Numbered from the stretch's first letter, positions 2,190 to 29,307 are shown. The stretch is DNA of 32,000 nt from Abditibacteriota bacterium (GCA_942493375.1 OW818698.1:5494528-5526527); one strand, 5' to 3'. The notes: generated by a model from the letters alone, not told the origin. Program-made: numbers and translations.

Positions 2190-3728
2190 ATGAACTACCG
2201 ACCAAAAGCAGATAGCTTAATACTCTGGGACACATGGATGTTCAGAGATCCCAATGGTAAAAGAATGCACTTGTTCTACCTTGCGAACCTGCCTGAAGGG
2301 CATTGGGAGTGGGTGGGGCATGCTGTCAGCGAAGATCTTGTTCATTGGGTGGATATGCCCAATATCCAGGTACGTTGTCCGGGTGACAGTTATGATGTCG
2401 GAGTTATTGGTACCGGGATGGTATTTGAGCATAGACCCGGTGAGTATATGATGAGTTATACCGCCAATCTGGACAGTGACAGACAGCAGATCTCTTTTCT
2501 TCACAGCAATGATCTCATTAACTGGGAGAAGAAATGGCCGCAGCCGGTGTTTACAGCTGAACCTCCATACTATGAGACTGACAAGACCAGGTGTATTAGC
2601 AGTCCGGCGTTCAGAGATGCATACATCCACAAGGTAGGGGAGCATTTTGAGGCTCTTGTTGGTGCAAATCTAACTGATGGACCGGTGCTGCTGCGCGGAG
2701 GCATTGCCAGGTATCGCAGCCTCAATGATCAACTGGACAAATGGGAACCACTGGCGCCTATTATCGGTCCAAACATCACAGCTCTGATGGAGGTTCCGGA
2801 GCATTTTCAGTTAGGAAATAAGCATTATTTGATATGGTCGACCTCCTCAAGCTTGGGTGTCGAATGTGATACACCAACACGCCGCACCTGTGGCGGGACT
2901 TTCTACGCTGTGTCAGACAGCTATGATGGATCTTACTGCGTGCCTGAAGACAACCTGCTGATAGGTGCCGGTGGGACGGTCCAGAGCTATGTTGGTAGAA
3001 CCATTGAATGGCATGGGGAACGACTGCTTTACCATCACATGGCATTCCCTTATCCGTCTTCAGGTATGCCGAAGCGCGTGATACAGAATGAAGATGGCAC
3101 CCTGAAACTCGGTTACTGGCCGGGTATTGAGTCGATCCACGCTGAAGCTATTGATATTCCTCTCAATAAACTTGATATCCAGGGAGAAAATATGGGAGCT
3201 GGAACCTGGATATCCACGAGTTCCAGTAGTCTGACCGGCAGTATAGATGGTGGTGGATCGTTGGCGCTTGTGGGATTTGAACACCAGGATATCCACCTCA
3301 AATGCAAAGTCACAGCCGATGCCACCCGGTTTGGTGTAGTCTTGCGCGATCCAGGTCAGTTCACAGACCGCGAGAACAACGTGCGAACGACCCACGCTGG
3401 ACTTGCCCTGCAGGGTGATATCAAACACAGAGAATGGCACTTTGGCAAGCCCTGTCATTCGTGGTGCAGTCATATATCACCCGTAGAGACAATCTATGAG
3501 GCTCCGCTGCCGAACCGCACTTACCAACTCGACCTGATTGCCCGGGACATCTACTTCGAGGTTTACATAAACGGTATCTGGAAATTCACCCGAATAGTAA
3601 GCGATAAATCCCCCAAAGGCAGAGTAGGTTTCTACGTGGAAGCCGGTTCAGCAAGGTTCGAAGAAATCCAGGCCTGGCAACTCGAACCAATGTCCCAACC
3701 CTACCCGGAAAACCTGCCCACCGCGTAA
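2190..3728 (+). CDS. GH32-like (clan GH-J) five-bladed beta-propeller glycosidase with C-terminal beta-sandwich
   Basis: GAGGA (2178-2182) lies 7 nt before ATG 2190. Three motifs match GH32 blocks:
- WMFRDPNG at aa 16-23 (compare the GH32 WMNDPNG nucleophile block).
- FRDA at aa 141-144 (RDP block).
- MEVPE at aa 200-204 (EC(P) acid/base block).
The C-terminal tail YFEVYINGIW...GRVGFYVEAGSARFEEIQAW looks like a lectin-type sandwich. No signal peptide is present. Confidence 0.65.
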   Translation: MNYRPKADSLILWDTWMFRDPNGKRMHLFYLANLPEGHWEWVGHAVSEDLVHWVDMPNIQVRCPGDSYDVGVIGTGMVFEHRPGEYMMSYTANLDSDRQQISFLHSNDLINWEKKWPQPVFTAEPPYYETDKTRCISSPAFRDAYIHKVGEHFEALVGANLTDGPVLLRGGIARYRSLNDQLDKWEPLAPIIGPNITALMEVPEHFQLGNKHYLIWSTSSSLGVECDTPTRRTCGGTFYAVSDSYDGSYCVPEDNLLIGAGGTVQSYVGRTIEWHGERLLYHHMAFPYPSSGMPKRVIQNEDGTLKLGYWPGIESIHAEAIDIPLNKLDIQGENMGAGTWISTSSSSLTGSIDGGGSLALVGFEHQDIHLKCKVTADATRFGVVLRDPGQFTDRENNVRTTHAGLALQGDIKHREWHFGKPCHSWCSHISPVETIYEAPLPNRTYQLDLIARDIYFEVYINGIWKFTRIVSDKSPKGRVGFYVEAGSARFEEIQAWQLEPMSQPYPENLPTA

Positions 3729-3790: not shown

Positions 3791-6700
3791 CTACTCCACT
3801 ATCCCCACCGCATCCACAAGCTGCCCGTTATTTAGAAGTTTCACGCACACCGGATTCAAAAGCCCCGTCAGATCCAAAGTCTGTGCACCAGCCTTTGCTT
3901 TCTGTTTAAGCAGTTGCTTGCCGTTTACATCACTAATAACCAGCTCTGACACCTTACCAGGAGACTTCATGCTTACCTGTAAGGCATTACCGCTGCGTTT
4001 CATTGAGATGGTTTTGGATAGCACTGCCACGCAAGCTACATCATTGCGTTCCATGTAGAGGCTGACCTTACCATAAATGACAGGCAGTTCCTGGCAGGTC
4101 AGAAGATTGACTACGTGGGTATCACGCAAGGATGTGTCCAGTTTCAGTGCCTCTCCTTCGAAAGTGTGTCCCATCGCATTATACAGATGGTAAATCGTCT
4201 TGCCTTCACCTCTAAAGCGGTTACAGTAAAGGTAGTTCTGTAAGGTTGGCAGGAGGGCATAATTGTCGCGGCCCTGGTAGACATTCTCATTCTCGTTAAG
4301 GATCGTATACATATTGTCAGGATAGTATCGTCCGAATGACTCAACTGCATTCCAGAACTTCTTATGACTGTTGACATCTACATTCATGTGGTCCAGTTCA
4401 TAAGCCTTGCATTCAGGAAAATAGAACCGCTGGAGGTTGCACTCCAGAGGACGCAGTGGTGATTTCTGCCCCGTAAGATCGTAAGTGATGCAGCCGTCGA
4501 GATATTGCATCATGTAGTCGAATGCTGGGAATTCGGTGGTGAGGACAAGGCCCGGACGGACTTTATCCATCCCCCTGTGTACCATCTTTATTGTCTCAGA
4601 GACAGCCTTATTCCATTGGGTGACTCCGAACTCGGCATAACTGTGCTTGTGGGAGGGGTTATAGCAGGCCCAGCCGCGATGGCCATACTCGTCCAGGCGG
4701 ATTCCGTCAGCCCCGGTCTCCCGCATCACGCGTCCGGTGGTCTTCGCAACCCACTCCCGCACTTCGGGCAGGTCGTGGCATGGATTGTAAACATCATATT
4801 CGGTGCTGAGCTTATCATCCTTATTGATCACCCCCCACTCCTTACCGTGAGCTAGACCGATCTTTGATGTGAAGTCCATGCGGAAGAAATCCGTATAGAG
4901 AGTGGTGAGGGATCCCATAGACTTGTATTTCTTTATAGCAGCCTGGAATGCAGGTAGTCCACCAAATCGTTCGTTATAACCCAGATAGTCACCGGGCTGG
5001 TTGTTCCACATCTTCTTGCCGGTAACCGGGTCGTTTACGAAGTATGGTTCCCATTCCTTGGTCTTAGCCGGAGAGAGGACCTTCTCAAGTTGATCGAAGG
5101 GTGTGCCGAATGGGCCCAGCGGAGACCAGTCCCACCAACTCATTAACTCGATGCAGTCGGTGTTCGGCTGTATGAAATCGGTGCGATATTTGCCATCCTT
5201 GAACAGGTAATCAGTCGCCCAGCCAGTTGCCATCATATTGCGAACACTTTTTAGTTTGGATGGATAAGGTCGAAACTTCCAGACGCTGTGTGCCCATTTT
5301 GCATAATCAGCCATTGCACTGTGCCAATCCCCAGTGTGAGCAGTCAGGACAGCAGTAGCAGGAGTGAATGATGCACCTGGTTTGCGGGTACGGCGCAGGT
5401 ACTCATAGGTGAAAGCGGTTCCATCCACGATATCCAGTGCAGCCGGCTCACATTTATACTCCGGCTTTACGAGCATTGTCAGTTCCTCCTGGTTTGAGTC
5501 AAACGCACCGGGAATGTGCTTGCGCAGTGCCAGGATCTTGTGCCATCCATTTTTGTCATCCGTCCGGATAGAAAGTCCACCCCCGAGTGCCGGACTGTAA
5601 AGGTCCATCACCTGGTAGAGTGCCTCATATTCGCCATAACCACGCCGTATTGAGGCAGAAGTGTCGGCGATAATCCCACCACCGGCAGGGAAGAAGTAGT
5701 AGTCGTCTTTTATCTGGGGTGATATAGCCAGGCTGGCCAGATGTGGGAAAGCCAATTTGAAATCGGTCGACTGCTTGCCGGTGTTGGTCAGACTGAAACC
5801 CATTCGCAGCCCTTCATTGGTCATATTCACCGTGAGTAAACCCCTGAGCGCGGGAGAGGACATATCCAACTGTGCTACAAATCCATTAGTTGATGGTTTA
5901 ATGCTGGTGATCTTGAATTCACGGCTCCCTGAATAGCGCTTCCCATTGACCTCGACTAAAAACAGAGCACATGCAGCGGGATCATGGATCATCTCAGTCC
6001 TGGTGACCATATTATAGAGCGAGGTCAAACGCAGGCGATTGGAGCTTTGGAACTTCGCGCGGAGTTGTCCTCCGGCAAGGGTTATCTCACGATCATTGAT
6101 CTTGCACACAGGTTGCAAGGCAGGAGGAGCCTTCACTACCTTGACTGCAGGTGTAAGGTTGATAGCCGGTGGTAGCGGGTGATATGAACGACTGCCGGTG
6201 ACTTTCACGCTCTGGACGACAACTGGTGTGTCAGTTGCAGTGATCAATAAACCCGAGGGTTGGAATGAACGCATGGCCGGTAAGTTGATATCTACACCCA
6301 TGGAAGCAGGAATATCCTTGGCAGCGGTACCGTCACGGTTGATCCACTGGATTTTCACAGTGCCAGTAGCTTCAACAGTTGCAGTCACTGGCTGAAGCAT
6401 ATCCAGGTTTTCAGCTGCCCACTCGACGCGTGCGCTCTGCCCGGCAGCCAGACTCAGTCCATCGGATTGGGGTTTAAGATCCCGTCCTCCAGTGTATATA
6501 AAGAATCCACATGGATCGTCCGTAGCAGACGACTTATCAGGTCGCCATCTTGCTTCAAAGCTGGTGGGTTTCTCAAGCACATACAAGCGGATCAGGTATT
6601 CACCGTTGCCTCCCGGGATCGTCAGCATCTCCTGGGTCCATGTCTTCCCATCGAATGCCACAGAGCTGTTACCGCGCTTCTCGCTGTTATCTATGCCCAG

Positions 6701-9685: not shown

Positions 9686-10399
9686 ATGCAAGCGAGAAAA
9701 GGTTTCACTCTAATTGAACTATTGGTTGTTATAGCAATTATAGCTATATTGGCAGCCATCCTGTTCCCGGTTTTCGCAAAAGCACGGGAAAAGGCAAGAC
9801 AATCCACATGTGCCAGTAACTTGAAACAGATTGGTCTAGCTTACACTTCGTATGAACAGGACTATGATGAGCGTCTTCCGGGTAACCAGTTTAACTTGAA
9901 TGCTGCAGACACTACATCTAAGTATGTGATGAAGTGTGGTATCAGGATTCAGTTCTGGCCTCAGTATCTGGAACCATACATCAAAAGTGCTGGAGTGTAT
10001 GAATGTCCCAGCGGTTTGACCGCAGCTTGTGGATCACTACCCAGCACTCCCCGCAGTTATGCTGTAAATGTCACTTTAGTGGGTTGCTGCGGAGGTGATG
10101 GGTCTGGAACCGACAATCGTGGCCAAAAAGTGGCAGATATAACCAAACCTTCCGAAACAGTCCTTATGGCCGACGGTGGTGTGCACTTCCTGTTTGGAGC
10201 GAATGGTGGATCCTCTTTTGGTTGGTATACCGGTACCCCCCCTGTAGACGCACCCTCTGGATCTCCAACCTGGGGAGATTCCTGGAAATGGATAGCCAAT
10301 AGACACAACGATGGAGCCAACGTGCTTTGGGCCGACGGACATGTGAAATGGGCGAAACAAAAAACCCTGACATACGTTAGCTTCTTTGCAGCACAGTAG
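9686..10399 (+). CDS. prepilin-type N-terminal cleavage/methylation domain protein, H-X9-DG (DUF1559) family
   Basis: AGGAGGA (9674-9680) precedes ATG 9686. The class III signal is MQARKG|[24 protein letters not shown], with Glu at +5. The C-terminal segment [14 protein letters not shown] matches H-X9-DG exactly. Confidence 0.9.
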
Positions 10400-10421
10400 T
10401 CATAATCCGTGATATAGCAAT

Positions 10422-10442
10422 GCCTCCAGCAATGCTGGAGGC
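10422..10442 (+). terminator. 9-bp hairpin downstream of pseudopilin gene 1
   Basis: The stem is GCCTCCAGC (10422-10430), loop AAT, GCTGGAGGC (10434-10442). It starts 23 nt after the stop at 10399. No T-run follows. Confidence 0.3.
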
Positions 10443-10843
10443 TCCTCGAAATCCACTGAGCCATCCGCATGTTCTTCTATGCAGGCTCCTTCACAGGCTC
10501 CAGAATCTCCGACCAGCTCAAACCAACCGATCTCATCGTACGTGACAATCCGAATACCTCCCCCCGTAGCCCATTCCATCGTAAATGGATGGGTGCTGCT
10601 ACGGAAGCATCGACAGTAACACTAGATGAAATCAACCTACGCAGGGCGGTTTAACCCGAGTGCACGAGTCAGAATTGTTAGCGGGATTTCGCCCAGCACC
10701 AATATCCCGTGCTTTTATCATACAGTTTCAATTGCCTACTACGTATAAATATATACATAACCGGCTCTTGATGTGGAATATACGTAATGCGAGAATCCGC
10801 TGAGTTAAATCCTCCACTGAATATATGATTTCGGGAGATACTA

Positions 10844-12940
10844 TTGAATAACTGCTTTTGCGATATCCGATCCAGGGTGATCTACACCATTGGAGTCCTC
10901 CTACTGCTGGTTTTTTTCTGGCTGCTGCCGGTTGTGGCTGAGGTAACTGACAAAACAGATGCAATTGAACTCAGGAATACAAGTTATGACTTGACTCAAC
11001 TGAGTATTGAGGACTTAATGAATGTTGAGGTTGAAATCACTCTTGCATCCAGGAAACCAGAAAGGCTTTTCGACACTACATCAGCTACATATGTTATCTC
11101 TCATGAGGACATTCAACGATCAGGTATTACTAATATTCCCGATCTGCTTCGCATGGTTCCCGGTATGCAGGTGGACAATATCAATTCAAATTCCAGAACA
11201 GTTACTTGCAGGGGTTTAGGGAACCGGTTTGGAAATAAATTGCTGGTGTTGTTTGACGGAAGGAGTGTATATGCAACAACACTGGGAGGGGTATGGTGGG
11301 ATGTACAAGACACCACACTCATGGATATAGAGCGTATTGAAATCATTCGCGGCCCCGGAGCTACTATGTGGGGGGCAAACGCGGTCAATGGTGTTATCAA
11401 TATCATCTCCAGACACAGCGAGGCGACACAAGGTTCCGCCATCTCTCAGACCATCGGATCACAAGATAAATCTAACACGGAGGTCAGATATGGTGGGAGA
11501 CTGGACGAAAATGGCACATATAGAATCTTCGGCAAGAATTTCAACCGTGGTGGTTCCATTACTCAATCCGGAGCCAAAGCGCACGATTCCTGGTATCATA
11601 ACCGCAGTGGGTTCCGGGTAGACTTGAATCCATCAACAAATGACTCAGTAGCAATACAGGGACAGGCTTATCAGGGACGATATGGCACGACCGACGAGGC
11701 TCTTACACTTAGTCCTCCATACATTCGAATAGTTGAGGATATGGGTAATGTCACCGGAGGTGATCTGCAGGCAGAGTGGACTCATCGCATATCACAGAAG
11801 TCAAGTACCAATTTGCTCTTCTATTGTGATAAGTCAGAACACAAGGATTGGCGAATCGACGACAGCAATGAGTCTTGGAATATCGATTTTAGTCACCGAT
11901 TTTCGGTTGGCGACAGGCACGATATTGTTTGGGGTATCGGTTATCGTACGGTTGACGGCACTGCTAAAGATGGAGTTCTACTCAACTTCAACCCAGACAA
12001 CCACACTGACCAATTGTACAGTGCGTTTTTGCAGGACGATATTGTAATCAAGAAAGATAAATTCAAACTGACACTGGGTTCGAAATTTGAACACAACACT
12101 TACACAGGTATTGAGCTGCAACCAAGTGCCAGGGTTCTGTGGACTCCTGATAAACAGCATGCAATCTGGGCTGCTGTGTCCCGTGCTGTCAGAACGCCAA
12201 GCTGGCTTGAAAGATACGGCCAGATAAATGTCAATGCAGTACCGGGTCCTATGGGACTGCCATTAGTATCTGCGTTGATTGGAGATCCGGATTTCGATTC
12301 GGAACGATTGACTGCCTACGAAACCGGATATCGTGTACAGACCAACAATCATTTGCAATTCGATGTCGCCGCATTCTATAACGTATACGATGGCGTGCAG
12401 GCCGGAGTCGCTCATCCTGAGAACATATATCCTGTTGGATCTCCTCCGCAGTACCTAATCCTCCCAATCACATTCGTGAATGGGGGGCGATTAAGGAGTT
12501 ACGGAGCTGAGTTAGCAGTCACCTGGAAGCCTGCACAGTGGTGGAGAGTATCTGGCTGGTATACTAGTCTACATGTAAATTCGGAGCGAGGACTCCCATC
12601 CAGCGATTCATCAATAGCAATGTATGACAGAGCATATCCACGTAGTCAGTTCCACATACGTTCATATATGGACTTACCCAACAATCTGAGTTTCGACGCG
12701 CTGCTCTACTATGATGGATCAAAATCGACTGGGAATGCCTTTACCACATTGCCCAATATCAGCAGTTACACAAGGCTTGATCTCAGACTTGGTTGGACAC
12801 CAAAACCAAACCAGGAGTTTAGTATCGGAATACAGAATGCGCTGGATTCCCGTCATGTAGAATACACAACACGTATTTCTGAGTTGCCTACTCTCGTGGA
12901 ACGTACTTTTTATGCACGTGCAGTTTGGAGTACATTATGA
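10844..12940 (+). CDS. TonB-dependent outer-membrane receptor
   Basis: GGGAGA (10833-10838) lies 5 nt before TTG 10844. The signal peptide ends LLPVVA|EV. Plug-domain motifs are DLLRMVPGMQV, VLFDGRSVY and IERIEIIRGPGATMWGANAVNGVINII. A remainder of about 500 aa resembles a beta-barrel. The stop overlaps the next start (ATGA). Confidence 0.9.
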   Translation: MNNCFCDIRSRVIYTIGVLLLLVFFWLLPVVAEVTDKTDAIELRNTSYDLTQLSIEDLMNVEVEITLASRKPERLFDTTSATYVISHEDIQRSGITNIPDLLRMVPGMQVDNINSNSRTVTCRGLGNRFGNKLLVLFDGRSVYATTLGGVWWDVQDTTLMDIERIEIIRGPGATMWGANAVNGVINIISRHSEATQGSAISQTIGSQDKSNTEVRYGGRLDENGTYRIFGKNFNRGGSITQSGAKAHDSWYHNRSGFRVDLNPSTNDSVAIQGQAYQGRYGTTDEALTLSPPYIRIVEDMGNVTGGDLQAEWTHRISQKSSTNLLFYCDKSEHKDWRIDDSNESWNIDFSHRFSVGDRHDIVWGIGYRTVDGTAKDGVLLNFNPDNHTDQLYSAFLQDDIVIKKDKFKLTLGSKFEHNTYTGIELQPSARVLWTPDKQHAIWAAVSRAVRTPSWLERYGQINVNAVPGPMGLPLVSALIGDPDFDSERLTAYETGYRVQTNNHLQFDVAAFYNVYDGVQAGVAHPENIYPVGSPPQYLILPITFVNGGRLRSYGAELAVTWKPAQWWRVSGWYTSLHVNSERGLPSSDSSIAMYDRAYPRSQFHIRSYMDLPNNLSFDALLYYDGSKSTGNAFTTLPNISSYTRLDLRLGWTPKPNQEFSIGIQNALDSRHVEYTTRISELPTLVERTFYARAVWSTL

Positions 12941-13572
12941 ATACATACAACCAACTGCATTATAGTGCCGGAGTTTCAAGAGATGAGTTGCAGATTACTG
13001 CTCTCTCATTCCGAAGTACAATAGCAGCCAGAGTAGGAGCAATCCTTCTCACTGTGTTAATGATTGGCATACTGGTGGCAGCTGTGTGTGCTCCAGCTTC
13101 CGGTTCCTCTGAATATGAGGTTAAGGCAGCATTCATATACAACTTTGCAAAGTTTGTAGACTGGCCGGATGAGGTATTCGGAAATGCGTTATCGCCCATA
13201 ATTATCGGCGTTCTGGGTTCGGATTCCATGTGCGACATACTGGAACAAACGGTTGCGAACAAAACTGCAAATGGCAGGAAGCTGTCCGTCAAACGTGTAA
13301 GTCGCATTCAAGACTTGAGCAACTGCAACATAGTGTTCATCAGTAGATCGTGGAGTAGAAGCACTAACGAGATATTAGAATCGACAAAGGGATCAAGCAT
13401 ATTGACCATCGGTGAAACAGAGGGGTTTGCCAAGCACGGCGGGATCATTAACTTCGTGATGAATGATCGGAAGGTTGGTTTTGAGATAAATGTCGATATA
13501 GCAAAGCGAGAATCTATAAAGATAAGTTCCAAACTCCTCAGTCTAGCTAAAATTGTTAAGGACAACAAGTAG
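12937..13572 (+). CDS. YfiR-like periplasmic protein (DUF4154)
   Basis: ATG 12937 overlaps the receptor stop (ATGA) and follows GGAG (12927-12930) by 6 nt. Alternative starts are TTG 12925 (track) and TTG 12988. A hydrophobic export segment is followed by [19 protein letters not shown]. Later come ILTIGE..GF..HGGIINF and KISSKLL, which I recognise as the YfiR/DUF4154 signature. Confidence 0.85.
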
Positions 13573-16336
13573 AGTGGGTTACTTTCGCAGATACTCATTT
13601 AGGAAAAAGCTAACTATAGTTATGATGCTTACAAGCGGAGTCGCACTACTGCTGGCGTGTGCTGCTTTCATGACATATGAATGGTGTACCTATCGACGGG
13701 CTACTGTTGTCGATCTAGCAACACTTGCCAAAATCACTGGAGACAACAGTGCAGCTGCACTTACATTTGGCGATAGCCTTGCCGCCATTGATAATCTGTC
13801 GAAACTGCACACTCAGCCGCATATAGTAGCTGCTTGCCTCTATACATTGAAAGGCGACTTGTTTGCCCGATATGTTTCCAAACAAGCAGAAAACAGACCC
13901 GCTCGTAGAAGAGAACAGGAGCAAGCTGCCAGTAAGGATAAAGGACATCTATCGGTATTCCGTAACGTCAAACTGGACCACAAGAATATTGGTTCAATCT
14001 ATATAGAAGCCGACACCAGCTCAATGAATATAAGGTTGAAACGATATGCAGGAATTATGCTCGGGGTTGTTTTACTATCTTCTCTGGCAGCATTCCTGAT
14101 GTCAGCGTTCCTGGAGCGAGTGATCTCCAAGCCAATCGTTAAGCTTGCTGATATGGCCAAGAGCATATCAGCCAACAGAGATTATTCAATCAGAGCATCA
14201 AAGACAAGTGAAGACGAAATTGGCTGGCTGATAGATGGGTTTAATGAGATGTTGTCAGAGATCCAGAAGCGGGATATGGACCTTCGCGAAGCTATTATCC
14301 GTGCGAATGAAATGGCAGAGAAAGCAGAAGCAGCGAACTATGCCAAGAGTCAGTTCCTCGCAAATATGAGTCATGAGATCAGAACACCCCTCAATGGGGT
14401 TATCGGGACATCCGGTTTACTACTTGGCAGCGAGTTGGATCATACGCAGCGCCGCTATGTGGACATAATTCGCAGCAGTGGTGAGGCGCTGCTTTCAGTA
14501 ATCAACGACATACTGGACTTCTCCAAAATAGAAGCTAAAAAACTGCAGATCGAAAGCATTGATTTTGATCTGTATGCCATGATAGAGAAATTTTCAGAAA
14601 CTATGGCTCTACGGGCTCAGGAAAAGGGCCTTGAATTGATATTTAACATACACCCTGATACTCCAAGGTTGTTAATAGGGGATCCGAACCGGATTCGACA
14701 GATAATGACAAACCTTGTGGGTAATGCGATTAAGTTTACTGCAAGAGGCGAGATTACAGTTAATGTAATCTCTGAGCCACCGCGAAACAACAAGGAAATC
14801 ATCAAGATTGAGGTACAAGATACCGGCATAGGAATGTCAAACCAGAATCAGGTGAGCATCCTTGAGCCATTTACTCAGGCAGATGGATCCATAACCCGGA
14901 AATACGGTGGTACTGGTCTTGGACTTGCGATATCAAAGCAACTCACTGAGATGATGGGTGGTAAGTTTGGTTATGAGAGCAAGATTGGATTGGGTTCCAC
15001 ATTTTGGTTCACTGTGGCGCTGAGCACACAACACGGTGATATAACATATAAGCTGCCGAGAGCTGATACCGAAACAATCGGATCCGCCAGTATTATCATA
15101 GCAGACGCCAGCGAAACCAACCGACTGGTTCTCAAATGTATTCTTGACAGCTGGGGCATCACGAACGAAGCTGTCGGGACTGCCGAAGAATTGATGAAGC
15201 GACTGGTGAGTAACGATCAGAAAGGAACTCCATACCAGGTTGCAATCATCGATGTACATTTGCCTGACACAGAAATTGTCGAAATATCCAGACGAATCAG
15301 ATCTAATGAAGCCACACAATCGATGGGACTCATTGCAATGGTCCACCTGGTTGAGTTGAATGAATCTGAACAGTATACTCAGGCAGGTTTCAACTGCTGT
15401 TTGTCTAAACCAATAGGACGTTCAACGCTTTATGACAGTATAGTTGCGGTAATCCATCCAGACATACACATAGATGAGCTATCCGGGAGAGTAGGCAGAG
15501 ATTGCAGCTCCAGGCCGAAATCCGAGAACCAAAGGTTCAAGATTCTACTGGCAGAGGATAACGTGACCAATCAAATGGTCGCCGAGGCAATACTGGAGTC
15601 ACTTGGCTACCCCATGGATATCGTAGAGAATGGTGCGGATGCCATTAGATCTCTGGGTGAGAAAGACTACGATCTAGTCCTAATGGACTGCCAGATGCCG
15701 GTTTTAGATGGTTATGCAGCGACTGCCAGAATACGTGCAGATGGCTCTGGAGTCAGGAATCCTGCAATCCCTATAATCGCTCTAACAGCAAATGCCATGG
15801 AAAGTGACAAACGTCAATGCTACGAAGCAGGCATGGACGATTATCTTTCAAAGCCTGTGACAGCGGAAGCTATTGCGGCTGCGCTGAGTAAATGGCTTGT
15901 ATATGATGAAAACATATACGTACCGGAAATTCCGGGTATAGCATCCGATTCACAATGCAATGATTATAAGTCAGAGCAAATACTATCGCCTTCACCAGAA
16001 GATTCTACTTTACCTGTATTCGATGAAGGGGCATTACTGGCACGTATTGGCGGTAATGAAGCGCTGGCTGGAAGAATTGTAATAAAATACCTGAATGATG
16101 TTCCCAAACGTATTAGCTTGTTGAAAGAATCTATCATGAGCAACGATCTACCGGAAGCACGGCTGCAGGCACACACAATAAAAGGCAGTTCCAGAAATGT
16201 AGGAGCAGAATCACTGGGAGAAGCAGCGGAAATATTGGAGAAAGCTTGTATTGCCGAAGATACAGGCTCATTAGCGGAGTTGACTCAGCAGATGGAGACG
16301 CGTTTTGAAGAGCTGAAAATCCGTCTGGCAGCATAA
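13553..16336 (+). CDS. hybrid sensor histidine kinase (2 TM periplasmic sensor-HAMP-HisKA-HATPase-REC-REC-Hpt)
   Basis: The start is TTG 13553 (overlapping the upstream stop) or GTG 13574. Domain order as read:
- TM1 ([20 protein letters not shown]).
- A periplasmic segment of about 130 aa.
- TM2 ([19 protein letters not shown]).
- A HAMP-like linker.
- H-box [13 protein letters not shown] (His codon 14372-14374).
- ATPase boxes [16 protein letters not shown] and [13 protein letters not shown].
- Receiver 1.
- Receiver 2 ([19 protein letters not shown]).
- Hpt ([11 protein letters not shown], His codon 16172-16174). Confidence 0.95.
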
Positions 16337-16416
16337 AACATTACTGACTGAGGATCTGGATACTATATTAATCAGCAAAGCGCAGCATTTTTTACAGATA
16401 AGAATAGGTGTAGAAA

Positions 16417-17463
16417 TTGAGAATATTAGGCGTAGATGACGACGATATAGCACTGGACATTCTAGAGGCTGCAATATCAGCTGATGGACATGAACTTATC
16501 CGTGCAGCTAATGGACTGGCGGCACTAAATATACTACAGCACGAACGAATTCAGATGGTTATCTCTGACTGGATGATGCCGGGAATAAGTGGAATCGATC
16601 TGGCAAATAAAGTGCGTGAAATAAATACCGGCCGGTACACATACTTTATACTACTAACATCACGAACAGAGAAATCCGACATTCTGGATGGGCTGAATGC
16701 TGGTGCTGACGATTTTATTATCAAACCATTCGATCCGGTAGAACTCAGATTACGCCTCAAAGTGGGCCAGAGAGTACTCGCACTAGAAACGCATCAGCTG
16801 ACGATTTTTGCACTCGCGCAACTCGCAGACACTCGCGATAACGAGACCGGCAATCATCTCTTGCGTATACGTGAATACTCATATCTGTTGGCGCAGCATC
16901 TCGTTGATTCATTTAAAACGGAATACAAGTTGCCCGGGGACTATGCAGAACTAATATATCTGACAAGTCCTCTGCACGATATAGGTAAGGTGGGGATACC
17001 TGATTGTGTATTGCTTAAACCAGGAAGGCTGGATGATTCGGAGTTCGCGATAATGAAAACACATGCATATTTGGGTGGGCAAACTCTATCTGCAGCTCTT
17101 CAGCACTTCCCGGAAGCAGCGTATTTGCAGATGGCTAGTGATATAGCAATGTATCACCATGAACGATTTGATGGTAAAGGATACCCAAATGGACTCAAAG
17201 GTGAAGCCATACCCTTGTGCGCCAGGTTAGTCAGTGTGGCAGATGTCTATGATGCACTGGTATCCCGTAGGGTATATAAGCAGGCGTTTACTCATGAAAT
17301 AGCACGCAGTATTCTGGTAGATGGATCCGGAACTCAATTCGACAGCACGATAGTGGATGCTTTCATGGCCAATGAGAAGAATTTCGAGGCAATAGCACTC
17401 CAGTATGCTGACGTTCCTCCTGCAATAAACTCATCTGAATCAGGGGAAAGGAAGTATGCTTAA
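16417..17463 (+). CDS. response regulator with HD-GYP domain (predicted c-di-GMP phosphodiesterase, RpfG-like)
   Basis: AGGTG (16406-16410) lies 6 nt before TTG 16417. The receiver motifs are GVDDDD, MVISDWMMPG and IIKP. The HD-GYP motifs are HDIGKVGIPD (HD codons 16975-16980) and HHERFDGKGYPNGL (GYP codons 17179-17187). Confidence 0.95.
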   Translation: MRILGVDDDDIALDILEAAISADGHELIRAANGLAALNILQHERIQMVISDWMMPGISGIDLANKVREINTGRYTYFILLTSRTEKSDILDGLNAGADDFIIKPFDPVELRLRLKVGQRVLALETHQLTIFALAQLADTRDNETGNHLLRIREYSYLLAQHLVDSFKTEYKLPGDYAELIYLTSPLHDIGKVGIPDCVLLKPGRLDDSEFAIMKTHAYLGGQTLSAALQHFPEAAYLQMASDIAMYHHERFDGKGYPNGLKGEAIPLCARLVSVADVYDALVSRRVYKQAFTHEIARSILVDGSGTQFDSTIVDAFMANEKNFEAIALQYADVPPAINSSESGERKYA

Positions 17464-17570
17464 AGATCTGGTTCCTATGGTTATGTGGTGCTTGACCGGT
17501 ATGAAGATAATGAATGTTAAGATAGCTGCAGGAACGCCGGTTTGCATTGTGTTATATACTTCAATCAACT

Positions 17571-17646
17571 AGCGCGCATCATTCACATACTATACTTTCG
17601 ACCGGCAGTAGGGGCGAAAGTGAGTTAATCACGAATAATGCGCGCT
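17571..17646. repeat. 14-bp imperfect inverted repeat enclosing a 48-nt segment with an inner 6-bp stem
   Basis: AGCGCGCATCATTC (17571-17584) pairs with GAATAATGCGCGCT (17633-17646) with one mismatch. The inner stem is CTTTCG...CGAAAG. The element lies in a 293-nt spacer between convergent genes. Confidence 0.5.
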
Positions 17647-17756
17647 CGAGTTCCCACAGCCATTAACAAATGTTTCCACATACAATCCAAGATGGCATCT
17701 TAGCTGCCATACTTATAGTAACAGACTCATTCTAGGTGCTAATTATATATGGGTTA

Positions 17757-19367
17757 TTATGCTTCCAGGATTACTACCCAGTCCTGGTAGATTGGCAACA
17801 TTTTCCAATTACCGTTTCCGAGTGGAATTTGCCAGTTGCCGGATGTATCGGGAACAACCTTACCGATATCGGTTTCCTCACCTGTTGCAGGGTTGAACAG
17901 CTTTGCATGGTAGCTTACACCTGCTTCGATGTTCTTGACTATGCCCGATCCCCACCAGTTGAGAGGGAAGTAGATGATCCTCAGCTTGCCTGGTATACCT
18001 GCTGCATATGCGCGGGTGTAATCATCAGAAGACCAGCATGGGTCAATCCACTCCGGATGCGGGGTCATGTTCCACCATTCATATCTGCAAAGAAGCTTCT
18101 TTGCCAGTCCCAGATGCAGTGAACCAGGAAGCTGATATGCATCTTCCCACGGAGTATTACCCCACGCCATACCATGCGGCGACGGACCATATGGTTTCTC
18201 TCTTGTGTTTACCTGCCAGATACCGTTGGCGCCATATGTGTGTCCGCACGCCCCACTCAGCATGCAAGTCCAGAACATCAGCCTCTGGACTTCCTGGCGA
18301 CAGGACTCTCCTATTCCTTCGTAGCAGACTTCAGAGTTGAAAACCGGCATTACCGGTTCACGGGTGTATTCACTGGTGATTGATCTAATAGTGTGTGGCA
18401 GACTACTACGGTCTCCATGGCCAGTCTGGAGCATATCGAAATCCAGGATTGAAGGATCTTCTACCTGGTTTCTGGAATTGTCCGTGGGATGTATTGTGAC
18501 AAGTCTATGGAACGGGTCAGTCTCCCGAACAAACCTGCCAACTTCCGTCCATCCTTTACACTGGAGCTCGGAGCCTGTTTCGTGGGTATCAGACATGTAA
18601 TAAGCCATCTTGCCTTCACCTGCCAGACACCAGAATACAGGATATGCAGCCCACCTGGCGATAAGATATTTCCAGTGTTGCTTCATCTTCTCTGTGTCGG
18701 TGAATGACAGGTAGTATCCCCAGCAGCCAACTACGCATGGTGCCAATCCCATTTCTACCAGGTATTCAATCCTCCGGTCAGCATAATCGAAGTAGGCTGG
18801 GTTTATTGAGCTATAATCGGTCTCCCAGGGGAATCCTGCTTCATTAACGCCTCTCTCATCAAATGCAGGCATATCGGGGTACAATCCGGCGATGATCTGG
18901 ATGACAGAGAAACTCTTCTCCACACGATCATTCGTCAGTGTCTGAAAACCCATTGGCCAGGATAAACGCTTGGTCAGGCCCATCCACCATGTGTCTGCAA
19001 ACCAGAAGAAAGGCGTTCCATCCTGGTGAGTAAAGTGACGTTTGTTATCTGAGACAACTACCGGACCATGTTTGTAGAGAGCATTGTCCCCTGAGTATTC
19101 AAGAACATCAATCCCGCCAGTCTGGCCGTGTAAACCGGTATCTGATGGACGGTTACATGTTGTCCGGAAATTAAAATGCCCCGGTGTGTGTGAGGAGAAA
19201 CGGACTTTCCATAGATTATTCCCCGCCCAGAACCCAGGGACTTTGTATTGCACTCCGTCTTCTCCGGTAAATACGGTTGCAAAATCCACGTCATTAAATG
19301 GGTCTTGATATATAGCTCCGCTAGCAAATGTTAACTCAATTACTTTGTTACGCGAGACTGCATACAT
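17757..19367 (-). CDS. DUF5060/DUF4038-type glycoside hydrolase (GH140-like)
   Basis: AGGAGG (CCTCCT at 19373-19378) lies 5 nt before ATG 19367. An N-terminal beta-sandwich (VPGFWAGNNLWKVRF) is followed by DGTPFFWFADTWW and FSVIQIIAG. I associate these with DUF4038/GH140 barrels. No signal peptide is present. Confidence 0.75.
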   Translation of the reverse strand: MYAVSRNKVIELTFASGAIYQDPFNDVDFATVFTGEDGVQYKVPGFWAGNNLWKVRFSSHTPGHFNFRTTCNRPSDTGLHGQTGGIDVLEYSGDNALYKHGPVVVSDNKRHFTHQDGTPFFWFADTWWMGLTKRLSWPMGFQTLTNDRVEKSFSVIQIIAGLYPDMPAFDERGVNEAGFPWETDYSSINPAYFDYADRRIEYLVEMGLAPCVVGCWGYYLSFTDTEKMKQHWKYLIARWAAYPVFWCLAGEGKMAYYMSDTHETGSELQCKGWTEVGRFVRETDPFHRLVTIHPTDNSRNQVEDPSILDFDMLQTGHGDRSSLPHTIRSITSEYTREPVMPVFNSEVCYEGIGESCRQEVQRLMFWTCMLSGACGHTYGANGIWQVNTREKPYGPSPHGMAWGNTPWEDAYQLPGSLHLGLAKKLLCRYEWWNMTPHPEWIDPCWSSDDYTRAYAAGIPGKLRIIYFPLNWWGSGIVKNIEAGVSYHAKLFNPATGEETDIGKVVPDTSGNWQIPLGNGNWKMLPIYQDWVVILEA

Positions 19368-20955: not shown

Positions 20956-21657
20956 TTGAAAAAGAAATCTGGATTCACACTTATTGAGTTGTTAGTTGTT
21001 ATTGCAATAATAGCTATACTAGCAGCAATCCTGTTCCCCGTATTTGCAAAAGCCAGGGAAAAGGCCAGACAGACAAATTGTATGAATAACTTGAAAAGTT
21101 TAGGCACTGCAATAATGATGTATTCACAGGACTATGATGAACTGTACCCGTTTGCCTATCTTGATACAACATATCTGGCTGGTGGCACAGCTACAAACTG
21201 GTATGGCAATTTGCAGCCATATATCAAAAATACCCAGATCTATCTATGCCCCAGCGCTCCTACTCAGGATCCGTATATAGGCAACTATAGTTCAAACAGA
21301 GGATTAATGCCATATCACCACGCTGGAAATCAGGTTCCGGCAATCTCAACCGCTTCAGTATCTGCTCCAGCAGAGATATACGCCATATTTGATGGCAGTT
21401 ATTTCTCATTAGCAAATACCGACCTTGCCCTGTGTGGAGCTTATCAAGCCTGGTTACCAGGAAGTGGACAAGTGAGCGGCATAGCCTGGCAGGGAGATGG
21501 TAACACTGCAAAACAAGCGGACTATAAAAATGGTCGCCACAGCGAAGGTGTAAACATGGCCTTTGCAGATGGACACGTGAAATTCCTCAAATCCGCAGTA
21601 GTCTGGAACGCCAAAGATCTGGGGATTAAGAATCCTTTCAATCCTACGACCTGGTAG
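20956..21657 (+). CDS. prepilin-type N-terminal cleavage/methylation domain protein, H-X9-DG (DUF1559) family
   Basis: GGAGA (20945-20949) precedes TTG 20956. The signal is MKKKSG|[24 protein letters not shown]. The C-terminal segment HSEGVNMAFADGHV matches H-X9-DG. A strong hairpin follows the stop. Confidence 0.9.
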   Translation: MKKKSGFTLIELLVVIAIIAILAAILFPVFAKAREKARQTNCMNNLKSLGTAIMMYSQDYDELYPFAYLDTTYLAGGTATNWYGNLQPYIKNTQIYLCPSAPTQDPYIGNYSSNRGLMPYHHAGNQVPAISTASVSAPAEIYAIFDGSYFSLANTDLALCGAYQAWLPGSGQVSGIAWQGDGNTAKQADYKNGRHSEGVNMAFADGHVKFLKSAVVWNAKDLGIKNPFNPTTW

Positions 21658-22950: not shown

Positions 22951-24447
22951 TTGTATTTCAACCGAGGTGATATTTTGTTATACGATGTATTCATATCTCA
23001 TGCAAGCGAAGACAAGGACGAGTTCGTTCGTCCGCTTGCGGAGGCTTTACAACGAAATCGTATTAAGGTTTGGTATGACGAATTCAGCTTAACCGTCGGT
23101 GATAGCCTACGTAGGTCTATCGATATTGGTTTGGCAAAATCTACCTATGGCATAATAGTCCTCAGTAAGAACTTCATGAACAAGAACTGGTCACAATGGG
23201 AATTGGATGGATTGGTTCAACGACAAATTGGGGAATCGAGAAAAGTCTTGCTGCCGATCTGGCACAATGTGACTCAGAACGAGGTAATGGAGTTTTCTCC
23301 GCCTCTTGCGGATAAACTTGCGATTTCAAGTGGAATTGGCTTGGACTGCGTTGTAGCCAAATTACTCAAGGTGCTGAGACCTGAAGGATCTACTTTAATA
23401 ATCGCACGAGATGAATTGCTGGATCTCGGATATGAAGTGCCGGTTATCACCGATGACTGGTGGCTAGATATGGTTGAATTCTCCGCTTCCAATGATATGG
23501 AAGGCACATTTCAAGAGGCTATGGGCTGGGGATACTGGGGGTTTCCGCTTCCACCCAAGACTGAAAAGCCGTCTGACAGAGGTCATAGATTGGCGATGTC
23601 AGTGGCACAAAACTTCTGGCAGGAGAGGGCTGCTGATCTTCGAATCAGCCAGGTTACTCATCCAAATGAAGTAATGGACTTTATACAATCTACACCCGCT
23701 ATGGAGGATGTTTGTTGTGAGAATATAAATTATCTTATCGCATATGCTCCACAATTGACTATACGTGGTTTTGGGGGACCATTTGAAGATATCATTGAAT
23801 CGGTATATCTACAGTCAGTATGTAAATGTGGGCAGAAACGCGAGAAGCATCTCAGTAATGGAACTGGCCTGACAATAAATGGATTACCTCCGGCTTGCGG
23901 TGAAAACATAGCATTGCGACACCCCACTTTTGGAGACTATGGCGCTTCGTTTATTGCATGTGACTTTGTTCAAGGTGATATATTTGGTCCACCAGTAAAA
24001 GTATTTGCAGAGGTGGATTATGCTGCATGGTTGATATCAGATAAAAGCATATGGATGCCATCAGCAACGCGACAGTATCTAATTGATGGTATTGGGGAAT
24101 GGGGTGTATGGCCTTGGGTTGACAATAGAGTGCCAGACATTTATGACTTGGAACGATGCGAACCGTGGCCACATATGGGCGATTTAGTGCATGCAATAAT
24201 GGACTTCTGTGGGAGAAAAATAGTCGCGAACAATGTATTTACGGTGACTAGTAATCTATTAGATGATATCCAATATCGTCTGGAATATTCACGTCGACTA
24301 CTGGGTATTGATGACGACACGGAAGTATTAACTCGCCGATTTCTTGCGTCAGGTATTATCGAAAGGACATTACTGGACCGCGAATCAAATGATATAAAGC
24401 AGTCTCCAGATCATATGCGACCTGTTGTGGTTCTACAAACTGAATAA
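22951..24447 (+). CDS. TIR-domain protein with ~350-aa uncharacterised Trp/Cys-rich C-terminal domain
   Basis: TIR motifs are YDVFISHASEDKDEFV, IKVWYDEFSLTVGDSL, and GIIVLSKNFMNKNWSQWELDGL with the conserved Glu at 23200-23202. The track start is TTG 22951. The in-frame TTG 22975 follows GAGGTGA (22964-22970) by 4 nt and gives the typical MLYDVFISH N-terminus. The C-terminal region (DDWWLDMVEF, GWGYWGFPLPP, GEWGVWPWVDN) is not recognised. Confidence 0.9.
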   Translation: MYFNRGDILLYDVFISHASEDKDEFVRPLAEALQRNRIKVWYDEFSLTVGDSLRRSIDIGLAKSTYGIIVLSKNFMNKNWSQWELDGLVQRQIGESRKVLLPIWHNVTQNEVMEFSPPLADKLAISSGIGLDCVVAKLLKVLRPEGSTLIIARDELLDLGYEVPVITDDWWLDMVEFSASNDMEGTFQEAMGWGYWGFPLPPKTEKPSDRGHRLAMSVAQNFWQERAADLRISQVTHPNEVMDFIQSTPAMEDVCCENINYLIAYAPQLTIRGFGGPFEDIIESVYLQSVCKCGQKREKHLSNGTGLTINGLPPACGENIALRHPTFGDYGASFIACDFVQGDIFGPPVKVFAEVDYAAWLISDKSIWMPSATRQYLIDGIGEWGVWPWVDNRVPDIYDLERCEPWPHMGDLVHAIMDFCGRKIVANNVFTVTSNLLDDIQYRLEYSRRLLGIDDDTEVLTRRFLASGIIERTLLDRESNDIKQSPDHMRPVVVLQTE

Positions 24448-24791: not shown

Positions 24792-25241
24792 ATGAAGCTC
24801 AGAATATATCTCGATACGTCTGTCATTAGCGCCTACTTTGATGACAGGGCCCTAGATAGAATGGCTGAAACCAGGATGTTCTGGTTGAGGTTGCCAGAGT
24901 TTCAGGTTTCGACCTCTGTGCTAGTCCATCAAGAGATTGTACAGACGATAGATTCAGTTAAGCGCCAGCAAATGCTGGAGTTACTGAGTAAATCTCATCA
25001 AATGGATGTGACTCCTGAAGCGCACGATTTGGCGCAAGCGTATGTTGACCGAGGATTGTTTACATCAACAATGTATGCTGATGCTTTACATCTCGCTCTA
25101 TCAGTACTTACGCGTCAGGATATCCTGGTATCGTGGAATTTCAAGCATTTAGTTAACAGGCGAAAGCGTGCAGAAGTGATTCGGGTGAACACCGTTCTAG
25201 ACTTACCTGCGATAGAGATATTGTCACCACCGGAACTGTGA
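24792..25241 (+). CDS. PIN-domain ribonuclease (VapC-like toxin)
   Basis: The acidic PIN residues are in the usual order: IYLDTSV (Asp codon 24813), HQEIV, YADALHLA and VSWNFKHLV. GGAGAG lies 9 nt before ATG 24792. A TATAAT box sits at 24717-24722. Confidence 0.85.
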   Translation: MKLRIYLDTSVISAYFDDRALDRMAETRMFWLRLPEFQVSTSVLVHQEIVQTIDSVKRQQMLELLSKSHQMDVTPEAHDLAQAYVDRGLFTSTMYADALHLALSVLTRQDILVSWNFKHLVNRRKRAEVIRVNTVLDLPAIEILSPPEL

Positions 25242-29202: not shown

Positions 29203-29307
29203 ACCAGTCTCCTGTCCCACTCATCTTTGCATTTACAATCTGGTGGTATTATATCTCACAAGGATGACAATCCGGAAATTGCCACCCAGAGCTTAGAATC
29301 CCCATTC

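Follow-up and report, generated by a model that had tools for sequence, protein, structure and literature searches.

The best described systems built around a YfiR-type protein are YfiBNR and HmsCDE of P. aeruginosa, E. coli and Yersinia, in which the gene for a DUF4154 protein of the YfiR fold adjoins that of an inner-membrane CHASE8-HAMP sensor, the operon also carries a gene for an outer-membrane protein, and the final output is cyclic di-GMP (c-di-GMP). The periplasmic domain of YfiN, which receives YfiR, is a CHASE8 domain (PMC8085984), and a single conserved surface of YfiR serves both YfiN and YfiB binding (PMC4655355). DUF4154 proteins are common, with 23,743 representatives of 50%-identity clusters at E<=1e-3 and 16,479 at E<=1e-10, and among them only the YfiB-YfiR-YfiN version has been studied. 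On the output side, a hybrid kinase with a histidine phosphotransfer (Hpt) domain encoded directly upstream of a regulator that joins a receiver (REC) to an HD-GYP domain is the classic RpfC/RpfG layout. Here, we describe a locus from an Abditibacteriota bacterium (GCA_942493375.1 OW818698.1:5494528-5526527; this whole 32,000-nt stretch is referred to as the window) in which four plus-strand genes at positions 10844-17463 encode a TonB-dependent receptor (TBDR), a YfiR-like protein, a hybrid histidine kinase and a REC-HD-GYP regulator. Comparison of these genes with their relatives suggests a composite of two modules. Module A (10844-14254) appears to be a portable three-part sensory cassette consisting of the TBDR, the YfiR-like protein and the CHASE8-HAMP input of the kinase. 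Module B (14255-17463) looks like a lineage-specific phosphorelay, in which the dimerization/phosphotransfer (DHp) and catalytic (CA) domains, a degenerate REC, a second REC and the Hpt domain are accompanied by a cognate REC-HD-GYP regulator. What seems to be new is the grafting of the cassette onto the kinase-to-phosphodiesterase relay of this lineage.

The locus shares with YfiBNR and HmsCDE the features listed above, the c-di-GMP output being a predicted one, and differs from them in several respects. Its outer-membrane component is a TBDR rather than an OmpA/Pal-like lipoprotein, a hybrid histidine kinase phosphorelay stands in place of a GGDEF cyclase, predicted HD-GYP degradation replaces synthesis, and the gene order is outer-membrane protein, YfiR-like protein, sensor instead of yfiR-yfiN-yfiB; in addition, its YfiR-like protein does without the Cys145-Cys152 disulfide and scores too low for the canonical YfiR model. 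The operon is not a member of YfiBNR: it has neither a YfiB partner nor a GGDEF output, and its YfiR-like protein neither matches the canonical model above cut-off nor has the disulfide. An earlier reading of the window from the nucleotide sequence alone (the sequence-only reading) had proposed that the partners of YfiR had been replaced here, and this was borne out: no OmpA-family (YfiB-type) match was found in the window open reading frames (ORFs) searched, the TBDR holds the outer-membrane position, and Pfam shows a hybrid kinase where the cyclase would be. With RpfC/RpfG of Xanthomonas and PA4781-type proteins the locus has in common a REC/Hpt hybrid kinase feeding a REC-HD-GYP protein with intact HD and GYP motifs; it differs in its TBDR/YfiR-like/CHASE8 input, which takes the place of the multi-transmembrane (TM) diffusible signal factor sensor of RpfC, and in an additional degenerate REC. 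By analogy, the YfiR/CHASE8 step of the operon probably operates as in YfiBNR, and its output step as in RpfC/RpfG.

The combination of TBDR, YfiR-like protein and kinase is already catalogued by annotators: three models in NCBIfam release 20 (June 2026) are dedicated to this triad (NF053590, NF053591 and NF053592). The window has the same three components in the same order, and both the YfiR-like protein (NF053591, TOL_0243 family; 161.9 bits, cut-off 125) and the kinase N-terminus (NF053592, 'sensor histidine kinase, YfiR-like protein-associated'; 243.5 bits over residues 15-238, cut-off 194) pass the curated cut-offs; the receptor falls below its own (563 against 645), and the transmitter and the regulator come from another, CHASE4-associated lineage. 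The operon belongs to the catalogued triad, with the receptor below cut-off, and its novelty lies in the transplanted transmitter and the HD-GYP output. Literature searches found no experimental work on the triad, in agreement with what the sequence-only reading had supposed for such a route; the sole functional datum found is that, in Thalassolituus, growth on n-C28 alkane raises the level of the TOL_0244 protein 7-fold (PMC6304351). OmpS, an alkane-sensing TBDR of Alcanivorax that is named alongside TOL_0244, may be a lead to a further case.

The joint between the two modules lies within the kinase gene. Its input module (TM1, CHASE8, TM2 and HAMP) occupies positions 13574-14254 (plus strand; approximately residues 1-235, numbered from TTG 13553), and its transmitter and phosphorelay (HisKA, HATPase_c, degenerate REC, canonical REC and Hpt) positions 14255-16336 (plus strand). 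Pfam detects CHASE8 (1e-15), HAMP (2e-8), HisKA, HATPase_c, two Response_reg stretches and Hpt, and no GGDEF domain, CHASE8-HAMP leading instead into HisKA-HATPase-REC-REC-Hpt; this is the architecture, with a two-TM, CHASE8-like sensor, that had been claimed beforehand. As read from the sequence, hydrophobic segments at residues ~20-43 and ~166-188 flank CHASE8, and the HisKA H-box, the second REC (DCQMP...LTA...SKP) and the Hpt histidine (HTIKGSS) are intact, while the first REC is partly degenerate, with AD for DD and Val at the Thr/Ser position.

The two parts of the kinase have different relatives. For residues 1-240, the only matches are sensors encoded after YfiR-like genes (44-46% identity). 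Residues ~235-927 (~700 aa) share 61-68% identity with hybrid kinases whose input is CHASE4 or PAS; in the comparison with the kinase of locus L161, 67% identity and 82% similarity extend over 705 residues from residue 228, with nothing similar before it, and tblastn similarity to CHASE4-type kinases begins at nt 14255. When 5.8 billion proteins were searched with the kinase, the nine best non-self matches (55-68% identity) covered its C-terminal 75% and all had CHASE4 or PAS inputs, and the best full-length CHASE8 kinases were just 38-43% identical to it. The regulator accompanies the C-terminal part. Its closest relatives (P0003, P0006 and P0007; 79-81% identity) lie directly downstream of CHASE4-input hybrid kinases, and in the three independent contig sets examined for this pairing (L161, L166/L167 and L168/L169) regulators with the same degree of identity sit after CHASE4/PAS-type kinases. 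Neither these kinase-regulator loci nor those of further relatives of the regulator have a TBDR or DUF4154 neighbour, and the window shows no synteny with CHASE4-type loci beyond the kinase C-terminus and the regulator; in L161, a chaperonin gene lies upstream.

These distinct relatives of the N-terminal and C-terminal parts argue that the TBDR, the YfiR-like protein and CHASE8-HAMP form one portable input cassette, and the kinase itself is best read as a mosaic in which a CHASE8-HAMP input has been joined to the phosphorelay of this lineage at the HAMP/DHp boundary. Such a kinase would represent a natural domain swap, in which receptor, adaptor and CHASE8-HAMP travel as one input unit, and the junction at ~residue 235 would be a splice point of use for engineering chimeric sensors. 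Recent horizontal transfer of either module was considered and rejected, as there is no break in GC or GC3. In L161 (5421-5816) and L168 (2008-2403), an extra single-domain REC gene lies between the kinase and the HD-GYP regulator, where the window has an 80-nt gap instead.

An important question is how widely the input cassette occurs. The neighbourhood survey used YfiR-like relatives as anchors and drew 80 loci each from species genomes and from metagenomes; domains were mapped by phmmer using queries derived from the window and from the loci, and ~40 proteins were checked by Pfam. The loci were those closest to this YfiR-like protein and not a random DUF4154 sample; they come mostly from metagenome-assembled genomes, ORFs were taken from stop to stop, and relatedness among the loci keeps the counts from being phylogenetically independent. 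In a set of 150 non-redundant YfiR-like genes, the next gene encodes a CHASE8-HAMP sensor in 116 of the 135 assessable cases (86%) and another TBDR in 8 (6%). On the upstream side, a TBDR gene directly precedes the YfiR-like gene on the same strand in 87/125 assessable cases (70%) and lies divergently in a further 11 (9%), so that the two genes are adjacent in 98 of 125 (78%). The order TBDR, YfiR-like protein, CHASE8 sensor on one strand was found in 64 surveyed loci with both sides assessable and also in the window. Judged by their database records, the hosts span at least 12 phyla and include Verrucomicrobiota, Planctomycetota, Acidobacteriota, Armatimonadota, Nitrospirota, Nitrospinota, Desulfobacterota, Bdellovibrionota, Pseudomonadota, Bacteroidota, Binatia, Rokubacteria and others; recurrence on this scale puts the arrangement far beyond chance. 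The order of the triad is strongly conserved, and the sequence-only reading, which had named a gene order not conserved in relatives as a ground for its refutation, survives in this respect for the triad. The four-gene unit is not conserved.

Tandem TBDR/YfiR-like pairs precede a single sensor in L009 and L050, and two such pairs without a detected CHASE8 sensor after them are present in L101. In L010, L046 and L071, additional TBDRs separate the YfiR-like gene from the sensor, and in L058 an extra TBDR follows the YfiR-like gene, with no sensor detected before the contig end. The tandem duplication of pairs indicates pairwise specificity, and several outer-membrane inputs may converge on one kinase. 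Many of the loci without a TBDR come from Phycisphaerae or Tepidisphaerales, and nothing consistent was found in them as a substitute outer-membrane partner. Two of them carry other envelope genes upstream of the YfiR-like gene, namely, a Phenol_MetA_deg-family outer-membrane barrel in L074 (6688-7953; 8.9e-7) and a MotB_plug plus OmpA protein in L076 (5936-7357).

Taking these data together, we regard it as fairly probable that the four genes, assembled from modules A and B, work as one composite envelope-spanning signalling operon. The YfiR-like protein, once exported, would bind the periplasmic CHASE8 domain and set the state of HAMP and of the kinase, as YfiR does with YfiN; homology and conserved adjacency make this control of the kinase well supported by analogy. 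The TBDR would be the outer-membrane input, in the favoured version by TonB-dependent import of a ligand that alters the YfiR-like/CHASE8 interaction or, alternatively, by capturing the YfiR-like protein directly. Phosphate would then pass from His to the Asp of the second REC, on to the His of Hpt and finally to Asp51 of the regulator, a route that is well supported by the intact motifs and by the joint conservation of the kinase C-terminus and the regulator. Phosphorylation of the regulator would switch its HD-GYP domain, for which c-di-GMP hydrolysis is predicted, an activity that the intact catalytic motifs likewise support well.

Several results weigh against this scheme. The score of the receptor against NF053590 (TOL_0244 family) is 563.4 bits, below the cut-off of 645. 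The YfiR-like protein fails the canonical YfiR model NF053586 (45.7 bits, cut-off 85), and in the alignment to YfiR the equivalents of Cys145 and Cys152 are Ala165 and Asn172, so that the disulfide is absent; with both the disulfide and the canonical match missing, its binding mode may differ from that of YfiR. Approximately 22% of YfiR-like relatives have no adjacent TBDR, and the receptor is thus not obligatory. The HD-GYP domain of the regulator also matches V-cGAP3 (5Z7C, 4.9e-28), which is specific for cyclic GMP-AMP (cGAMP), and HD-GYP domains may have other substrates. Finally, no closer relatives of the input cassette were found than those with a best YfiR-like identity of 56% in species genomes, 51% in JGI metagenomes and 50% among 5.8 billion proteins, and since none exceeds 56%, the four-gene unit has been seen only once.

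The YfiR-like gene (12937-13572, plus strand, ATG start) encodes 211 aa with a Pfam match to DUF4154 (PF13689, 'YfiR/HmsC-like') at 2e-45. An N-terminal hydrophobic helix would serve as a signal peptide or anchor, and the folded domain covers residues ~57-207. In Foldseek searches with the AlphaFold2 model (pLDDT 86.7, core >95), the top 14 matches were YfiR chains with TM-scores of 0.68-0.79, the best being P. aeruginosa YfiR structures (0.72-0.79), followed by single lobes of periplasmic substrate-binding proteins. The DUF4154 assignment of the sequence-only reading stands, and the protein has the YfiR fold, but it is not a canonical YfiR. The Cys145-Cys152 disulfide is needed for the folding of Pseudomonas YfiR (PMC4655355), and in the alignment of 149 relatives Cys occurs at these positions in at most 1% of the family. 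The most conserved parts of the family are the domain start and the RFEIN...ISSKLLxLA end, corresponding to alpha1, beta7 and alpha4, and these stretches map to the YfiR surface that binds YfiN and YfiB. No fusions of DUF4154 to TBDR or sensor domains were found among the top 120 and top 150 matches, which contained only tandem DUF4154 repeats; proteins with two or three tandem domains are P0361 (342 aa), P0362, P0363 and P0487 (546 aa), and others are encoded in L043, L069 and L159.

A soluble periplasmic protein that controls a hybrid kinase through its periplasmic domain, as proposed here for the YfiR-like protein, is found in TorT-TorS and LuxP-LuxQ, and the likeness extends to the fold, YfiR resembling one lobe of substrate-binding proteins. 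The differences are that the YfiR-like protein of the window has a single lobe and not two, and that a dedicated outer-membrane receptor gene is attached to it.

What, then, does this receptor contribute? The TBDR gene (10844-12940, plus strand, TTG start) encodes 698 aa with Pfam matches to Plug (1.6e-20) and TonB_dep_Rec_b-barrel (1.6e-35). Behind its signal peptide, the protein has the conserved N-terminal motif 'LSxEDLMNxEV', then a TonB-box-like strand, the plug and the beta-barrel; ~40 residues separate the signal peptide from the plug. It is 40-43% identical to TBDRs adjoining YfiR-like genes, and NF053590 is still its best family (E 6e-169, against 8e-36 for the next one). Across 71 TBDRs adjoining YfiR-like genes, the N-terminal motif and the plug are kept, and the segment 'DLxxLSLEDLMNIEV', N-terminal to the TonB-box-like strand, is conserved to the same degree as the plug core. 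An STN signalling domain is missing, Pfam showing only Plug (75-184) and barrel, and the window yielded neither sigma nor anti-sigma genes. The locus differs in this from TonB-dependent cell-surface signalling (FecA-FecR-FecI) and from import-dependent two-component sensing (PfeA-PfeSR and SusC with hybrid two-component systems), having no STN domain, anti-sigma factor or extracytoplasmic function (ECF) sigma factor. It differs from them also in the soluble DUF4154 protein placed between receptor and kinase and in an output that would be second-messenger turnover, not transcription of the receptor gene.

Two ways of coupling the receptor to the YfiR-like protein were weighed. In the first, a ligand imported by the TBDR would be sensed in the periplasm. 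In the second, modelled on YfiB, no ligand would have to enter: the TBDR itself would titrate the YfiR-like protein, for example, through its TonB box or N-terminal segment after ligand binding, and so derepress the CHASE8 kinase. YfiR is indeed known to be sequestered by an outer-membrane protein via beta-strand augmentation on its YfiN-binding surface (PMC4655355). Titration would also fit the strong conservation of the segment preceding the TonB-box-like strand, the translational coupling of the two genes by an ATGA overlap, their co-duplication as pairs in L009, L050 and L101, and the presence of a TBDR in the place of YfiB even at the cyclase-type loci L064, L035 and L149. However, a dedicated signalling domain is missing from the receptor, the conservation of its plug and barrel is that of a working transporter, no substitute sequestering partner was found for the ~22% of loci without a TBDR, and the different outer-membrane channel family in L074 suits transport better than docking. 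Ligand import is favoured by a conserved plug, barrel and TonB-box-like strand without a signalling domain, by a YfiR fold like a substrate-binding lobe, by the replacement of the TBDR by another outer-membrane channel family in L074, and by the many loci that have no TBDR. Within the pathway we therefore give a tentative preference to import and sensing, itself no better than a possibility, over sequestration, which we consider rather unlikely. The shuttle between receptor and phosphorelay put forward by the sequence-only reading is accordingly upheld as far as the conserved adjacency of the triad goes, but capture by the receptor is one of two mechanisms, and ligand import is at least as likely.

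Another possibility is that the TBDR is simply a co-transcribed transporter and that the YfiR-like protein alone senses the periplasm, for example, its redox state or envelope stress. YfiR-like/sensor pairs without any TBDR, which occur in 23/125 loci with assessable upstream sequence, are compatible with this, as is the intrinsic redox-sensing role of Pseudomonas YfiR (PMC4655355). Also in its favour, 90% of the family retain Cys130, the counterpart of Pseudomonas Cys110. The disulfide pair that is redox-sensitive in Pseudomonas YfiR, on the other hand, has not been conserved. Moreover, 78% adjacency in at least 12 phyla, a fixed order, tandem duplication of pairs and a start-stop overlap are difficult to account for unless the two genes are functionally linked, and the regulator is not a transcription factor, which means that the TBDR gene cannot be its direct regulatory target. 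We therefore hold a mere bystander role of the receptor to be improbable and retain the composite pathway, in which the receptor would supply the input.

The last gene (16417-17463, plus strand) encodes the 348-aa regulator. Pfam shows Response_reg followed by HD_5/HD, and the protein aligns to the c-di-GMP phosphodiesterases PA4781 (4R8Z, 1.3e-46) and PmGH (4MCW, 9.8e-40). The HD, HHE and DGKGYP motifs are all conserved (LHDIGK, HHERFDGKGYP), which confirms the REC-HD-GYP output claimed beforehand, and the receiver residues D8/D9, D51, T81 and K103 are apparently intact as read from the sequence. The protein is predicted to be a phosphorylation-controlled c-di-GMP phosphodiesterase. The joint conservation of its kinase C-terminus with the regulator makes it likely that the transmitter and the regulator are phosphotransfer partners.

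The regulator could nevertheless be something other than the dedicated c-di-GMP output of this kinase: it might act on another dinucleotide such as 3'3'-cGAMP, be a c-di-GMP-binding adaptor or be phosphorylated mainly by another kinase. The match to V-cGAP3 would suit the first of these, but the best matches are the c-di-GMP phosphodiesterases PA4781 and PmGH, and both the metal-binding and the GYP residues are kept. As to the partner, further relatives of the regulator follow a PAS kinase or a stand-alone Hpt, and in L162 and L170 it is this Hpt and not a kinase that adjoins the regulator gene; the extra single-domain REC of L161 and L168, which the window does not have, points in the same direction. 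Against this stand the joint conservation of the kinase C-terminus and the regulator on several contigs and the Hpt-bearing hybrid kinase directly upstream, as in RpfC/RpfG. On this evidence, a non-dedicated regulator seems very unlikely, and hydrolysis of c-di-GMP under the control of the adjacent kinase is the reading that we keep.

Does the cassette lead to c-di-GMP in other genomes as well? The outputs attached to the CHASE8 sensor vary and include HisKA kinases (many of them hybrid), HisKA_2 kinases, GGDEF (L064) and GGDEF-EAL (L035 and L149); with a constant sensor module and a varying output, the invariant pair is the YfiR-like protein plus CHASE8-HAMP. The YfiN-like CHASE8-HAMP-GGDEF(-EAL) sensors of L064 (751-4732), L035 (151-3609) and L149 (3344-7646) are preceded by a TBDR and a YfiR-like protein, and these loci are intermediates between YfiBNR and the kinase triad in which the TBDR replaces YfiB. 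Enzymes of c-di-GMP turnover are linked to the cassette in 20 of 72 assessable loci (~28%), three as direct fusions and 17 as neighbouring response regulators, mostly REC-GGDEF or REC-(PAS-GAF)-GGDEF-EAL. The distal flanks of these loci contain only one such ORF in a total of 252 kb (binomial p ~5e-12, not corrected for phylogeny). REC-HD-GYP proteins were found in three loci only, namely, the window and L060 and L122, where the gene lies upstream of the receptor gene; the latter two proteins are 27% identical to that of the window and have GFP for GYP, and were thus recruited independently. The link of the cassette to c-di-GMP is recurrent, HD-GYP degradation is a rare variant, and the fourth gene stands outside the conserved unit. 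Of the four-gene route to c-di-GMP degradation in the sequence-only reading, the link to c-di-GMP is therefore borne out for the cassette at large, but the degradation step is not. In L057, the regulator after the kinase is a REC-adenylate/guanylate cyclase (4401-5810; Guanylate_cyc 4e-46), so the cassette can also feed cyclic mononucleotide signalling.

A large DUF4154 subfamily, as the survey shows, pairs with TBDRs and with CHASE8 kinases or cyclases. If the receptor does feed the YfiR-like/CHASE8 switch, uptake or occupancy at the outer membrane would be tied directly to second-messenger levels with no sigma factor involved, and a function would be at hand for many 'orphan' TBDRs and CHASE8 kinases in Verrucomicrobiota, Planctomycetota, Acidobacteriota, Nitrospirota and others. 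A bolder proposal, which we advance only as a speculation with the odds against it, is that the cassette represents a second general mode of TonB-dependent cell-surface signalling without sigma factors. A DUF4154 adaptor captured at the N-terminal/TonB-box segment of the receptor would read its occupancy or energisation and gate phosphorelays and c-di-GMP enzymes in at least 12 phyla, and the window would show that this unit can be transplanted to a kinase of unrelated origin, the joint lying between HAMP and DHp.

The four genes are tightly packed. A GGGAG sequence sits 6 nt upstream of the TTG start of the TBDR gene at 10844. The ATG of the YfiR-like gene at 12937 overlaps the TGA stop of the TBDR gene (12938-12940) in an ATGA arrangement, and a 211-aa database gene call from the same genome is consistent with this start. 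Two starts are possible for the kinase, TTG 13553, which gives a 20-nt overlap, or GTG 13574, 1 nt past the YfiR-like stop at 13572; a 920-aa database gene call corresponds to the latter. Between the kinase stop (16336) and the regulator start lie 80 nt. The tight coupling described in the sequence-only reading is thus all visible, from the positions of the ORFs on the plus strand to the ATGA overlap, the 1-nt junction or 20-nt overlap and the final gap. Upstream, a 444-nt intergenic region (10400-10843, plus strand), bounded by the end of a DUF1559 gene at 10399, is presumed from its position to hold the operon promoter and leader. The downstream neighbour (17757-19367) is convergent on the minus strand, and the transcription unit therefore ends with the regulator. 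This convergent gene and the 444-nt upstream gap make it plausible that the four genes constitute an operon.

A scan of 10300-17900 for consensus promoters and terminators gave fewer sites than shuffled sequence and none at the gene boundaries, which makes the consensus uninformative for this organism. The 444-nt upstream region has no convincing sigma-70-type promoter and no Rfam family; no Rfam family was matched in the whole window, and a repeat search of the window returned just short matches at chance level. Between the regulator and the convergent gene, there is a 14-nt inverted repeat (17571-17584/17633-17646; 93% complementary, 48-nt spacer) that is possibly terminator-like and was missed by the consensus terminator scan.

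Elsewhere in the window, a plus-strand gene at 22951-24447, whose 498-aa product has a TIR domain (TIR_2, 2.2e-19) at its N-terminus, is followed by a plus-strand gene for a PIN-domain protein (24792-25241; 3.6e-5); these may be defence or toxin-type genes unconnected with the operon. Two plus-strand genes, 9686-10399 and 20956-21657, encode DUF1559 (SBP_bac_10) proteins with prepilin-type N-methylation motifs. Glycoside-hydrolase-like genes nearby are GH32N (2190-3728), the apiosidase-like convergent gene (17757-19367), GH39/GH10-like (27355-29220) and GH20 (29412-31574), and together with the DUF1559 genes they presumably mark a polysaccharide-degrading genome.

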